From the NCBI GenBank assembly GCA_000990355.1, contig LBSX01000002.1:6000-69999 (forward strand): a stretch of DNA of 64,000 nt. Reading direction: 5' to 3'. Below, in pieces: positions 3,993 to 37,160 of the stretch. The DNA comes from Candidatus Magasanikbacteria bacterium GW2011_GWC2_37_14. GTDB taxonomy: Bacteria; Patescibacteriota; Patescibacteriia; Magasanikbacterales; UBA922. Each line of letters opens with the position of its first letter. The stretch's first letter is position 1. A program made the translations under genes and the position numbers. The notes under the pieces were generated by a model, which saw nothing but the letters and a program-made list of their open reading frames with translations, made no database searches and was not told the origin of the DNA.

Positions 3993-6583
3993 TATATAGC
4001 AAATAAAAACCCATAACTCAAAGAAGTATAGGCCATATCTTGCCAAACAGTAAATTCATTCATATCCGGCATGCGGGCCCAAGGAGCATATTGTCGAAGG
4101 GCAGGAATATTTTTTGGGGTGGGATAAAAATTATTATACACCAAACAACCCCAAGCATCGGTAGGTTCACAATCGCCGTCATAATCTCGTGCATGGGGAC
4201 CATAAATAGGTAATCCAGGGACTGGTTTTTCTTGTTGGTCATACATAGAATTCAAATGTAGTGGAAATTCGGGATTTCTAATTCCTAATCCAGTTATCCA
4301 AGAAAGACCCAAAGGATTTTCTCCTAATTGATAATCAGCATTTAAAGAAATTGCGTCGATATATTTTTGATCTTTGGTAAAATAATATGCCATTGCAGTG
4401 CCAACAATACTTCTCATAGAGTTTGATCCCGAGCCCCAAGCAATTGCGTAATTAAAATTAGTAGAATTTTTATATTTATTTTCCATAATTTGTTCTACTT
4501 CGTCATTGCCAATTTCAATAATTCTATTTTTTACTTGTTCTTGAAAATCTCTGTCAACGTTGGTGCCATTGGCATTGCTATAACCCCAAAAAGAATAAAT
4601 ATTTGCAAACCAAGTAGGACCACGATAGGTTGGGTACAATTGTTTAAATACATTTTGATATTTTGTTTCATTGGTTAAAGCAAATAATTCTCCGGCGGCG
4701 TACATTTTTTCTCTTTCTAGTTCATTCAGTTTGTCTTCGTTACTTCTTTCTACAGGCGCTGTCGTGCCAAGGCTAGTTTGTTTTTCTGCCCAATCCCAAG
4801 CTTTCAAGGCTTTATTTTTTAAATCAGTGGCTTTGTTTTTTCCGGCGGGATAATTTTCCAAAATTCTCGCTAAATGTGCAGCTGCTCCGGCAAATTTATA
4901 AGAAGTCCATCTGTTTGGAGCATATGTCCAGTAGGGAAGTGTGTCACCCTCACATGTAGAAGAACCTGGGTGAGCATAACTCTCAACGCCAGCTCTTACT
5001 CCGCCGTCTGATTCTTGTAAAGTTTCCCATAATTTTATTCCCCATAAAGCTTCATCCAAAACATCTGGAATTTGGTTTCCACTTTCCGGAATATTTAATT
5101 GATTGTCTGTAAATTTATTAGGAAACATTTCTTGTAAGGTTGTTAAATCTTCGACAATTAGTAAATGCATTGGTCTTAAATCAAAATCACCAGCATCAAA
5201 CCAACCACCACTAATATTTATCGGGTTATTTTTGGAAGTATTTTTAGAAAATTTTTCACCAAAATCTTCCAATATATTTGTTTCAAATACTTGGTTCAGG
5301 CACATTTTATGAATCCAGTTGGTATATTTTGATTCTAGGGCTGTGCCAGCCCGTTGGTGGTACAAACCGCGAATTGCTGTATAAAAGGCTGTAAAAGCAG
5401 AATCTAGCCCTACGCTAAAGACAAGAGATCGACCAATTCCTTCTACCTCAAGATAATAATTACCTTCGTTTAAATCACTTAAATCTAATTCATATAAAAT
5501 TTCTCCACTTAGATTGTCCGATCCTAAGTTTGTTGATTTTCCCGAACTGACCAATTGTTTGGAACTGGCATTATACACTTGATAATTTAATTGTGTCGGC
5601 AATATTAAAGCACCGCCAGAACCTAACCAATAACCAACATAAGCATAGCGTTCTTTTGCTTTTAAAGAAAAACCATGTTGATTAATTTTAATAGCTTTGG
5701 CAATTTGCAAATCTTTGCCAGGCATTAAATTCCAAGAAGAAAATTGTTCATTGGAAAAATAACCAATTGTTCCGTTATAAACATATTTTTTACCTGTTGG
5801 GTTAATAAGTTCTACTGTATAATTTTGATCATTTTTTAATTCTTTAGGTAAAGTTAAATACAAAGTATGTCTTAAAACAACGTCGGCTTGGTTTTGGCCG
5901 TTATAATCTCTGTCTTCAGCATCTAATACTGCCGAAAATCGATCAATTTTTGTAGGATGAACAATATTTTTGTAATTTATATCACTAGTAGAAATAATAT
6001 TCCAATTGTTTGCATTCATTATAAAATTTAAATCAATTTCACCATCAAAAATTACTTCCGCTATTTTATTAGTAATTAGTCCAATTGAATTATTTTTTAT
6101 TACGACTTCAGAAGTAGTAAATTCACTGTCTGGATATATTTCCGAGTTGTTTATGGTTAATATTCTGTCCCAGCGATAGCCCAAATTATTAAAAGCAGTT
6201 TCATTAGCAATGTGTTTTTTTAATAAAATTCCTTTTTCACTGTATTCTAAGCGATAAACTTTATTACTATTAGCATATTTTATAATTGTAAATTCTGGGT
6301 GATGGTCAGTGTAATTTATTTCACCGGCAGTTTCGTATTTATTTAATAATTCGACATCAATATTTTCAATCCAATTCCAAGGGTATTTTAAAGAGTTAAA
6401 AATATTTTCAGATTTTATCCAATATTTTTTATTGTTCAATAATATATACACCTTTGGGTCGTTGGGAATTTTTACCAAAGCGCCATGCAGGGTGTTATTA
6501 ATAGAAAATGCTTTTGGCACAAACAATACAAAGGCAAAAACTAAGTTTAAAACAATTAAACTAAATATTTTTCTTTTATTCAT
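3992..6583 (-). CDS. secreted glycoside hydrolase family 9-like protein (endoglucanase-like) with long N-terminal beta-rich region
   Basis: Signal peptide MNKRKIFSLIVLNLVFAFVLFVPKAFS. GGWFDAGDFDLRP and DYQLGENPLGLSWITGLG resemble the GH9 catalytic signatures. Confidence 0.65.
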   Translation of the reverse strand: MNKRKIFSLIVLNLVFAFVLFVPKAFSINNTLHGALVKIPNDPKVYILLNNKKYWIKSENIFNSLKYPWNWIENIDVELLNKYETAGEINYTDHHPEFTIIKYANSNKVYRLEYSEKGILLKKHIANETAFNNLGYRWDRILTINNSEIYPDSEFTTSEVVIKNNSIGLITNKIAEVIFDGEIDLNFIMNANNWNIISTSDINYKNIVHPTKIDRFSAVLDAEDRDYNGQNQADVVLRHTLYLTLPKELKNDQNYTVELINPTGKKYVYNGTIGYFSNEQFSSWNLMPGKDLQIAKAIKINQHGFSLKAKERYAYVGYWLGSGGALILPTQLNYQVYNASSKQLVSSGKSTNLGSDNLSGEILYELDLSDLNEGNYYLEVEGIGRSLVFSVGLDSAFTAFYTAIRGLYHQRAGTALESKYTNWIHKMCLNQVFETNILEDFGEKFSKNTSKNNPINISGGWFDAGDFDLRPMHLLIVEDLTTLQEMFPNKFTDNQLNIPESGNQIPDVLDEALWGIKLWETLQESDGGVRAGVESYAHPGSSTCEGDTLPYWTYAPNRWTSYKFAGAAAHLARILENYPAGKNKATDLKNKALKAWDWAEKQTSLGTTAPVERSNEDKLNELEREKMYAAGELFALTNETKYQNVFKQLYPTYRGPTWFANIYSFWGYSNANGTNVDRDFQEQVKNRIIEIGNDEVEQIMENKYKNSTNFNYAIAWGSGSNSMRSIVGTAMAYYFTKDQKYIDAISLNADYQLGENPLGLSWITGLGIRNPEFPLHLNSMYDQQEKPVPGLPIYGPHARDYDGDCEPTDAWGCLVYNNFYPTPKNIPALRQYAPWARMPDMNEFTVWQDMAYTSLSYGFLFAI

Positions 6584-6633
6584 ATCTTTTATTTTACTCT
6601 AATAAGTGAGTAAAAACAATTTATTTATAAGAT

Positions 6634-6666
6634 ATAAAAAAATAATGGCCCAATAAAGCCATTATT
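6634..6666 (-). terminator. rho-independent terminator after the small TPVE-repeat ORF
   Basis: AATAATGGC / GCCATTATT 9-bp stem, followed on the minus strand by TTTTT. Confidence 0.6.
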
Positions 6667-6692
6667 TCATTTATTTTACAATTTTTGTAAAA

Positions 6693-6806
6693 TTATGCTT
6701 GAGGTTCAACTGGAGTTTCTTCTGGGGTAGGTTCTACTGGAGTTGCTGTTTCCTCGACTGGAGTAGTGGCTGTAGTTTCGTCTGTAGTAGGTTCGTCTTG
6801 CATCAT
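6693..6806 (-). CDS. candidate 37-aa acidic Thr/Pro/Glu-rich peptide (MMQDEPTTDETTATTPVEETATPVEPTPEETPVEPQA)
   Basis: Not in the ORF track (<60 aa). Bracketed by a perfect consensus promoter and a terminator. Contains three ACTCCAGTnGAr repeats. Confidence 0.35.
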   Translation of the reverse strand: MMQDEPTTDETTATTPVEETATPVEPTPEETPVEPQA

Positions 6807-6856
6807 ATGTGTGATACTTATGTATAAAGGCCAACTAGTGTTAGTCAGTGGAATCA

Positions 6857-6885
6857 ATTATATCACGTTTTGATTATCTTGTCAA
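6857..6885 (-). promoter_or_regulatory. perfect consensus promoter TTGACA-N17-TATAAT (minus strand)
   Basis: Minus-strand TTGACA at 6885-6880, 17-nt spacer, TATAAT at 6862-6857. Confidence 0.65.
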
Positions 6886-6945
6886 TGATAAATTTTACCT
6901 TACACTACTTGGCTCGGGGTCACGAACGACGTTCGAACCAGCTTG

Positions 6946-7404
6946 TTAGAATTTTAAAAGACTGGCAATACACAAAACTACCCCAGCACCAAAAAGACAA
7001 CCAGCCATTTTACCAACCGCGGATTTAAGCATTGTCCTTTCTTCAGACACAAATTGAAGTCTTAATTTTTCGGCAGAATAGCCCTCAAAGATCCCCGCTA
7101 TTCCGTCTGTTATGGCATTTCCGACAACACCGCCAAGGATAGCCCCTGTTACCCCACCAAAATGACCGCCAAAGATTGCCATTATCGCTAGAATACCATT
7201 ATCTATCAATCCGAAGTATATATCCGGCAAAACGGATTTTATATTTATTTTAAAAGGTAAAAGAGAGAGAAGACAAAGTATGGACAATAAAATCAACACA
7301 AGACCTATCCAGTGACCGTCGTTAACAAGATATATGCTAACCGCACCGATTATAATACAAAGTGCAAGTATGTTAACGATAGCTAAAAAGAACTTCTTAT
7401 TCAT
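6946..7404 (-). CDS. small membrane protein with glycine-zipper segment, unknown function
   Basis: Hydrophobic helices. GGHFGGVTGAILGGVVGNAITDGIAGIFEG. Confidence 0.5.
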   Translation of the reverse strand: MNKKFFLAIVNILALCIIIGAVSIYLVNDGHWIGLVLILLSILCLLSLLPFKINIKSVLPDIYFGLIDNGILAIMAIFGGHFGGVTGAILGGVVGNAITDGIAGIFEGYSAEKLRLQFVSEERTMLKSAVGKMAGCLFGAGVVLCIASLLKF

Positions 7405-36548: not shown

Positions 36549-36980
36549 ATGAATACGTTAAAGTTCAAAATTGCCACACCAGAAAAAGTCGTTTATGAAA
36601 ACGAAATTTTTCAGGTTTCTATTCCTACTACTACCGGAGAAATTACCATACTACCTAATCATTCACCCCTCGTTTCTATTTTGCAAGCAGGTGAATTAAG
36701 ATTTAAAGACAATGAAGGCGAACATTTAATGGCTGTTTCTGGTGGATTTTTGGAAATTCGCGCCAATAATGAATTAATAATTTTGGCAGATAACGCCGAA
36801 CGTGCTGAACATATTGATATTGACCGTGCTGAAGAAGCTCGAAATAGGGCTGAAGAACAAATGAAAGCTGTTAAAACTGGAGAGGATATTGATTATGCTA
36901 AGTTACAGGCAATAATAGAGAGAGAAGTGAATAGAATGAGAGTTGGTAAAAAATATAAAAATATAAAAATTAACAGTTGA
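36549..36980 (+). CDS. atpC: F0F1 ATP synthase subunit epsilon
   Basis: Beta-sandwich N-terminus plus helical C-terminus. Operon position fits. Confidence 0.9.
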   Translation: MNTLKFKIATPEKVVYENEIFQVSIPTTTGEITILPNHSPLVSILQAGELRFKDNEGEHLMAVSGGFLEIRANNELIILADNAERAEHIDIDRAEEARNRAEEQMKAVKTGEDIDYAKLQAIIEREVNRMRVGKKYKNIKINS

Positions 36981-37005
36981 CACCTTTTTTAGAGTATTTT
37001 ATAAT
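36977..37005 (+). promoter_or_regulatory. perfect consensus promoter TTGACA-N17-TATAAT
   Basis: TTGACA 36977-36982, TATAAT 37000-37005. Confidence 0.65.
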
Positions 37006-37037
37006 ATAATTATTAATTATAATTTTTAATTTATAGT

Positions 37038-37160
37038 ATGGCAGATTGCCCACAATGTGGTATGCCCATGGACGAAGATATTTCTTGTCCAAAGTGCGAT
37101 GCTTGCGATCAGTGTTGTAAATGTTTTGAAGGAGAAGAAACCTTGGAAGAAAATGAATAA
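37038..37160 (+). CDS. 40-aa Cys-rich zinc-ribbon-like protein (MADCPQCGMPMDEDISCPKCDACDQCCKCFEGEETLEENE)
   Basis: Not in the track (<60 aa). Has its own consensus promoter and terminator. CPQC...CPKC pattern, 9 Cys. Confidence 0.5.
   Translation: MADCPQCGMPMDEDISCPKCDACDQCCKCFEGEETLEENE

Follow-up and report, generated by a model that had tools for sequence, protein, structure and literature searches.

A short conserved ORF with its own promoter and terminator beside a GH9 gene of Candidatus Magasanikbacteria

Candidatus Magasanikbacteria is an uncultivated groundwater bacterium of the CPR/Patescibacteria, the genomes of which are small and full of unannotated genes. The stretch of DNA analysed here (64,000 nt, hereafter the window) is identical to the JGI metagenome contig Ga0209211_10000626 (JGI 3300025308) and to one Logan contig, and the organism is also present in SRR3309152. 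Its GH9 protein (see below) matches a protein of Candidatus Magasanikbacteria bacterium GW2011_GWC2 (US42) at 100% identity. A preliminary description made from the letters of this stretch had proposed a self-contained mini-gene on the minus strand, consisting of a promoter, an ORF and a terminator, and all of the elements it described are present (Table 1). The 3' neighbour of the unit encodes an 863-aa protein with Pfam matches to Glyco_hydro_9 and CelD_N (GH9), and genes for a VTT/DedA-like protein, a GT4 glycosyltransferase and a 152-aa glycine-zipper-like membrane protein are also found around it. The unit stands out in composition as described, the GC content being 0.48 in 6700-6799 versus 0.15-0.21 in the adjacent spacer. 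The 37-aa ORF had already been predicted by the JGI gene caller, and the caller used for Logan gives a 54-aa version of it with a TTG start.

Table 1. Elements of the mini-gene and the promoter-like box in front of the GH9 gene, in window coordinates.
Feature	Position	Strand	Details
Sigma-70-type promoter	6857..6885	-	TTGACA 6885-6880, 17-nt spacer, TATAAT 6862-6857; 12/12 consensus
Extended -10 TGaTATAAT	6865-6857	-	TG at 6865-6864
5' UTR, ~44 nt	6807..6850	-	without Shine-Dalgarno motif; 80% identical to L003
5'-terminal stem-loop CUGACUA-ACAC-UAGUUGG, 7 bp	6831..6848	-	predicted in all three orthologues
37-codon ORF and TAA stop	6693..6806	-	MMQDEPTTDETTATTPVEETATPVEPTPEETPVEPQA; net charge -10; TAA at 6695-6693
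Three in-frame ACTCCAGTNGAR (T-P-V-E) repeats	6764-6753, 6743-6732, 6716-6705	-	within 6705..6764
AU-only hairpin A-UUUUACAA-AAA-UUGUAAAA-U	6673..6693	-	directly 3' of the stop; predicted fold, conserved
Intrinsic terminator	6636..6668	-	13-pair stem-loop 6668-6639 and 7-T run 6642-6636; stem with 3 G-C pairs, several G-U
Weak promoter-like box TTGTTT-N17-TAAAAT, outside the mini-gene	6591..6619	-	ends 7 nt before the GH9 ATG (6583)

The perfect TTGACA-N17-TATAAT promoter reported earlier lies where it had been placed, and in the promoter scan only one other 12/12 match was recorded for the first 14 kb. The window as a whole includes seven 12/12 sigma-70 promoters, each of which precedes a gene or RNA gene; consensus promoters are thus the norm here and not a peculiarity. 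The start ATGATG is present at 6806, though at a distance of 50 nt from the -10 box, not about 45 nt as first given. Likewise, the terminator is present but is longer than the 9-bp stem with a T5 tail originally claimed, and about 50 nt separate the end of its T run from the GH9 ATG, as had been noted.

The predicted 5' stem-loop begins within a few nucleotides of the inferred transcription start. A Shine-Dalgarno motif was found within 30 nt upstream of none of the 24 called genes of the neighbourhood (L001 1-20459, equivalent to window 17404-1), the leaders of which are AT-rich. The missing motif is therefore normal at this locus and does not count against translation of the mini-ORF. In the window (6800-6817, minus strand) and in L003 (1239-1257), one of two further contigs with the unit (see below), the start codon of the mini-ORF lies within a weak second hairpin; in the other, L010, there is instead a small hairpin immediately 5' of the start.

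The three ACTCCAGTnGAr repeats of the preliminary description were recovered and are confined, within the window, to the mini-ORF. Copies of ACTCCAGTNGAR are 21 and 27 nt apart and hence in frame, and they differ from one another solely at third-codon positions (GTC/GTA/GTT, GAG/GAA). In a shuffle control, 6 of 100 shuffles gave at least three matches to this motif anywhere in the window. Tandem Repeats Finder reported no tandem array at the mini-gene, the three repeats being interspersed. ARAGORN detected no tRNA or tmRNA in the mini-gene region, and the search of the whole window against Rfam (Rfam 15) gave no match at the gathering score. When 6400-7100 was searched in E-value mode, only terminator-like chance matches were obtained, the best of which (rli52, E 0.25) covered the terminator hairpin alone. 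A nhmmer search with a profile of the unit found no paralogue of it in the window.

Scanning metagenomes with the GH9 protein identified a relative, contig L003 (L011-L013 are exact copies), with a GH9 79% identical at the protein level. Nucleotide identity over the aligned segment from GH9 to the downstream genes is ~81.5%, and the neighbour proteins are 83-86% identical. The mini-ORF was located in L003 at 1252-1362 by tblastn with the peptide (E 1e-12). The window and L003 peptides were then combined into a profile, which was compared with a set of 5.8 billion proteins and retrieved P0025 (L003, 36 aa) and P0026 (35 aa), the latter from L010, a 556-nt ENA contig carrying a third orthologue. 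All three ORFs were predicted independently by gene callers.

Both L003 and L010 keep the promoter, the 5' hairpin, the frame, the position of the stop, the AU hairpin and the terminator. The -35 box TTGACA is identical in the two, and the -10 box reads TATACT in L003 and TGgTAGAAT in L010. At the 5' end, one G-U pair of the stem has become G-C in L003, and one loop position differs in L010, which gives CUGACUA-NCAC-UAGUYGG (7 bp) across the three genomes. This hairpin is separated from the start codon by 23-26 nt of AT-rich leader in every case, including L010 (26 nt), where the first six codons are lost and a new ATG lies right before the TDETTAT core. The site of the stop is constant (TAA, TAA and TAG in the window, L003 and L010, respectively). 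In the hairpin following it, the 8-bp core stem is invariant in the three genomes and the loops differ (AAA, AUC and ACA); the ninth, closing pair A6693-U6673 is replaced by G-U in L010 with its TAG stop. The terminator of L003 has kept the stem with a changed loop, and that of L010 is a different, GC-rich hairpin, AAAAAGCGGC-TACA-AGCCGCTTTTT, followed by a T run at the same position. Thus, the terminator sequence has been wholly replaced in place in L010, which indicates that termination function is kept and not sequence. In the consensus fold, pairing is confined to the two conserved hairpins (5' and post-stop) and the terminator, the body of the ORF being unpaired. The post-stop palindrome was also considered as a repeated operator, but this was rejected as it occurs once in the window.

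Between the window and L003, the conserved block spans exactly the region from the -35 box to the terminator, and both UTRs, 5' and 3', are 80% identical. Outside it, 100 nt upstream and 50-60 nt downstream fail to align. The upstream neighbour of the unit is different in each of the three genomes, being the 152-aa glycine-zipper-like membrane protein, a 273-aa Cys-rich protein or an unrelated ORF. On the downstream side, where this is known (window and L003), the unit is followed by an LCP/GH9/VTT(DedA-like)/GT4 cluster in the same orientation.

The synteny between the window and L003 breaks inside the N-terminal part of GH9 (window 6486-6583, L003 1507-3012), and the similarity resumes at residue 33. 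The window GH9 has a short, different, signal-peptide-like N-terminus. L003 includes an extra gene for a 396-aa LCP-like protein, and its GH9 N-terminus is ~80 aa longer. As read from the sequences, this break suggests that DNA adjacent to the mini-gene has been deleted or replaced.

The preliminary description had proposed the comparison of synonymous and non-synonymous changes in related genomes as a check of the ORF, and the substitutions are of the coding type with the frame kept. In the Nei-Gojobori analysis, the mini-ORF gave pS 0.51, pN 0.20 and omega 0.28 (Fisher p 0.0024) for the window vs L003, pS 0.345, pN 0.124 and omega 0.30 (Fisher p 0.027) for the window vs L010, and pS 0.354, pN 0.174 and omega 0.41 (Fisher p 0.15) for L003 vs L010; as only three orthologues of low-complexity sequence are compared, the statistics are modest (p ~0.002-0.03), and the alignment in the middle of the ORF is ambiguous owing to the same low complexity. 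For the neighbour genes used as references (VTT-domain, GT4 and zinc-finger; window vs L003), pS was 0.46-0.49, pN 0.07-0.08 and omega 0.10-0.13, with Fisher p 1e-20 or lower. The pS of the mini-ORF is thus similar to that of the neighbour genes, so that its synonymous sites drift at the local neutral rate, its replacement sites being restrained. The other two frames of the same alignment gave omega of 0.75-3.7 and include stops. At least 11, 8 and 20 changes are required at codon positions 1, 2 and 3, respectively, so that third positions account for 20 of the 39 changes (binomial p 0.015, three sequences). There are three indels (3, 12 and 18 nt), all of them in frame.

A different explanation of the same block is that the transcript is a non-coding or dual-function sRNA, in which motifs of the ACUCCAGU type would pair with G-rich targets, e.g. 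GGAG-like sites. The unit would form a discrete transcript of ~210 nt from promoter to terminator with an ORF body that is predicted to be single-stranded, and its hairpin stems are conserved while the loops vary (the post-stop core without change, the 5' stem with the single G-U to G-C change). An open frame is also fairly likely from composition, since, as estimated from the base frequencies of this A/C-rich sequence, a given 36-codon frame stays open by chance about 1 time in 4. Furthermore, the UTR hairpins are conserved at least as strongly as the peptide, and hence a role at the RNA level may exist. However, the repeat is not conserved at the nucleotide level, L003 having ACCCCAGTA, ACTCCAACC or ACTCCTGTT in its place; wobble-site variants of the motif or a change to TPTE are seen in L003 and L010, and the protein stays TP[VT]E. 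A conserved seed of the kind expected for a base-pairing sRNA was not found, as ACUCCAGU varies at wobble positions both within and between genomes. The enrichment of third-position changes, the omega below 0.5 in the ORF frame only and the in-frame indels argue against this explanation as well, as do the lack of Shine-Dalgarno sites that it could target (0/24 genes) and of a matching Rfam family. The sRNA option raised in the preliminary description is therefore disfavoured by the codon-periodic substitutions and by the wobble variation inside the supposed repeat motif; a role as sRNA, alone or beside coding, is unlikely, and the unit is most likely not a pure sRNA.

The preliminary description had also suggested that the unit might be a leader or attenuator for the glycosidase. 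In L003, a gene for the 396-aa LytR_cpsA_psr-like (LCP-like) protein lies between the unit and GH9, and with the profile of the unit nhmmer found no copy near the GH9 relatives of 50% identity (L004-L009). The equivalent spacer in those relatives is occupied by two tRNA genes, as read from the sequence (L004), or by unrelated sequence (L006). The two tRNA-like genes upstream of the L004 GH9 are located at 2517-2795, where the gene caller had put a 73-aa antisense ORF over them. No antiterminator structure competing with the terminator was found in single-sequence or consensus folds of any orthologue, and the L010 terminator, the sequence of which was replaced while the ORF was kept, has no complementary upstream segment for an alternative pairing. 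With a gene intervening in L003, GH9 relatives lacking the unit and no antiterminator, the unit is evidently not a leader or attenuator of GH9. The TTGTTT-N17-TAAAAT box, which had been said to end 7 nt before the GH9 start, is indeed present, but it is weak evidence of a GH9 promoter, as its -35 hexamer matches at only 3/6 positions, it did not reach the threshold used in the scan, and boxes of this kind abound in this AT-rich DNA. The box is not conserved in L003, where GH9 directly follows another gene.

In a broader form of this suggestion, the unit would be the leader or first cistron of the whole LCP/GH9/DedA-like/GT4 envelope-glycan cluster, which its strong promoter would drive through partial read-through at the terminator, with translation of the Thr/Pro-rich ORF as a possible modulator. 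In both genomes with known downstream DNA the cluster comes directly after the unit and has the same orientation, and the upstream neighbour of the unit varies; the weakness of the box before GH9 and the proportion of Thr (26-33% of the residues) are further points in agreement with such a leader. On the other hand, each of the three genomes has retained a T-run terminator even where its sequence was replaced, none of the orthologues has an antiterminator pairing, and the next gene is not the same, being GH9 in the window and the LCP-like gene in L003. In addition, tRNA genes or unrelated DNA make up the spacer in the GH9 relatives of 50% identity, and the cluster is unrelated to threonine supply. 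A leader function for the cluster is accordingly rather improbable, with partial read-through into the LCP/GH9/VTT/GT4 genes a minor possibility.

The ORF could also be thought of as a decaying remnant, e.g. of the Pro/Thr-rich linker of a broken cellulase-type gene, or as a spurious ORF by a promoter. The ORF is similar in composition to the PT linkers of glycoside hydrolases, and the break of synteny inside the GH9 N-terminus is close by. Nevertheless, conservation of the unit extends from the -35 box to the terminator across three genomes with neutral sites diverged by 35-50%, its frame is under purifying selection, and the peptide resembles neither GH9 nor any of the other ORFs in the window and L003. 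This explanation is largely refuted by the pattern of conservation and is very improbable.

The peptides of the three orthologues consist of T, P, E, D, V, A, Q and M, with a single I, L, S and N added in L003, and K, R, H, aromatic residues, Cys and Gly are absent from all of them. The net charge of the three peptides is -10, -9 and -7. The conserved core is TDETTAT...TP[VT]E...ETPVEPQA, and VEPQA forms the C-terminus in each case. No secondary structure was predicted for the peptide by AlphaFold (pTM 0.19). This, together with the coding-type conservation in three genomes, supports the earlier suggestion of a small disordered peptide. That the peptide might be secreted found no support, as it has no hydrophobic segment and no signal peptide of any kind. 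Inspection for a Sec/Tat signal or a double-glycine leader revealed in it neither a signal peptide nor a hydrophobic core, no stretch of Leu, Ile or Phe, and no GG cleavage motif. Nor does it have the features of a RiPP precursor, since the neighbours include no modifying enzyme, the peptide has no Cys, and the upstream neighbour varies by genome.

Comparison of the 37-aa peptide with 1.84 billion cluster representatives by phmmer and of the 54-aa version by a word-indexed protein search found only the query itself, and no match was obtained in Pfam (E up to 10) or the PDB. The tblastn search of the window with the peptide gave chance matches only, the best of them antisense to an MreB-like gene. 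Among the contigs of species-representative genomes, neither the GH9 protein nor the pattern CTGACTAACACTAGN{20,30}CATATGAT had a match, and the lineage seems to be absent from that set. Pattern scans of viral contigs were negative, and nothing relevant was found in the literature on small disordered proteins in CPR.

Taken together, the data indicate that the unit is probably an independent, monocistronic and likely strongly transcribed small-protein gene, its transcription and translation being read from the DNA. The best-supported description is that of an orphan, lineage-restricted small-protein gene which is ordinary in kind and which no family covers. Transcription would start a few nucleotides upstream of the conserved 5' stem-loop, which may shield the mRNA from 5'-end-dependent decay, as such hairpins typically do. 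The AT-rich leader of ~24 nt without a Shine-Dalgarno motif would lead into the start codon, and the A/C-rich, unstructured frame of 35-37 codons would be translated into a polyanionic Thr/Pro/Glu/Val peptide. The conserved AU hairpin and then the Rho-independent terminator would follow, so that the transcript would end before the next gene.

Bacterial small proteins of fewer than 50 aa encoded by monocistronic genes are the closest known parallel, as the unit, like their genes, has a promoter and a terminator to itself, its conserved ORF is very short, its phylogenetic range is narrow, and annotation misses it or leaves it unnamed. Most of the characterised monocistronic small proteins (AcrZ, MgrB, KdpF, CydX and SpoVM) are hydrophobic membrane peptides. 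In contrast to these, the mini-gene peptide is entirely polar and polyanionic, and belongs to no recognisable family. Tags of the Pup/UBact type are likewise small, acidic and disordered with a strictly conserved C-terminus. However, the mini-gene peptide ends in EPQA and not in GG[Q/E], is about half as long and gives no match in Pfam. Attenuator leader peptides such as thrL and hisL resemble the mini-ORF in being short, Thr-rich and followed by a terminator upstream of a same-strand operon. The mini-gene differs from them in that it has no antiterminator pairing, ~25 nt, including a separate hairpin, lie between its stop and the terminator stem, the downstream gene is not constant and belongs to no amino-acid pathway, and the peptide is under purifying selection.

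Lacking a signal sequence, a hydrophobic segment and a fold, the peptide is most likely a cytoplasmic disordered polyanion. Since no homologue has a known function, its biochemical role is a guess. Two such guesses, drawn from composition and context only, are that it serves as an electrostatic binder or mimic for a basic partner, or as a Thr-rich acceptor for the glycosyltransferases of the adjacent cluster. For the former, the 52-aa Gp5.9 of phage T7 is a small acidic mimic of nucleic acid, and known mimics are folded. The mini-gene peptide is likewise very small, highly negative and without basic residues, but it has no phage context, no predicted fold and no sequence similarity to Gp5.9. 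With regard to the latter, the GtfA/GtfB system comprises cytoplasmic O-glycosyltransferases of the GT4 family with Ser/Thr-rich repeat substrates. Like those substrates and the linkers of glycoside hydrolases, the peptide is rich in Thr and Pro, and it is encoded beside GH9 and GT4 genes. In contrast to them, it is free-standing, with no flanking domain, export signal or sequence similarity, and its glycosylation is a conjecture.

A more far-reaching proposal is that the peptide is the founding member of a group of highly expressed cytoplasmic polyanionic peptides specific to Magasanikbacteria, which would work with the LCP/GH9/DedA/GT4 cluster either as a Thr-rich O-glycosylation acceptor or primer for GT4, or as a mimic titrating a basic partner, and that the post-stop palindrome and the 5' hairpin form a post-transcriptional control module; as a whole this proposal is doubtful. 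For the small-protein gene itself, an ORF of fewer than 40 codons has here been validated from three metagenomic orthologues, and the gene, clear-cut, apparently strongly promoted and with conserved hairpins in its mRNA, offers a concrete and inexpensive target for experiments. The view of GH9 regulation or of CPR biology is unchanged by it unless a link to the envelope-glycan genes is demonstrated.

Several other elements of the window were observed in the course of this work. On the minus strand at 10153-9937, a second perfect TTGACA-N17-TGtTATAAT promoter (10153-10125) precedes a GC-rich element of ~100 nt (~10090-9990) and tRNA-Asn (9937-9865), with the sequence ATATTCGGGAGTAGC occurring twice, at the start of the GC-rich element (~10090) and at the 5' end of the tRNA-Asn gene (9937-9865). 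The GC-rich element had no Rfam match at E up to 1, and its fold is no better than those of shuffled sequences (z 0.21). On the plus strand, a CIRCE-like inverted repeat, TTAGCACTC-N9-GAGTGATAA, is located at 63220-63246 directly after a perfect promoter (63191-63218) and upstream of an ORF, with its start at 63354, that is ClpB-like as read from the translation. This CIRCE-like repeat suggests that heat-shock control of the HrcA type may operate in this CPR genome. A small ORF also lies behind a perfect promoter at 36977-37160 (plus strand); it starts 32 nt past the -10 box and encodes a Cys-rich peptide of 40 aa with 10 Cys and a net charge of -10, MADCPQCGMPMDEDISCPKCDACDQCCKCFEGEETLEENE.
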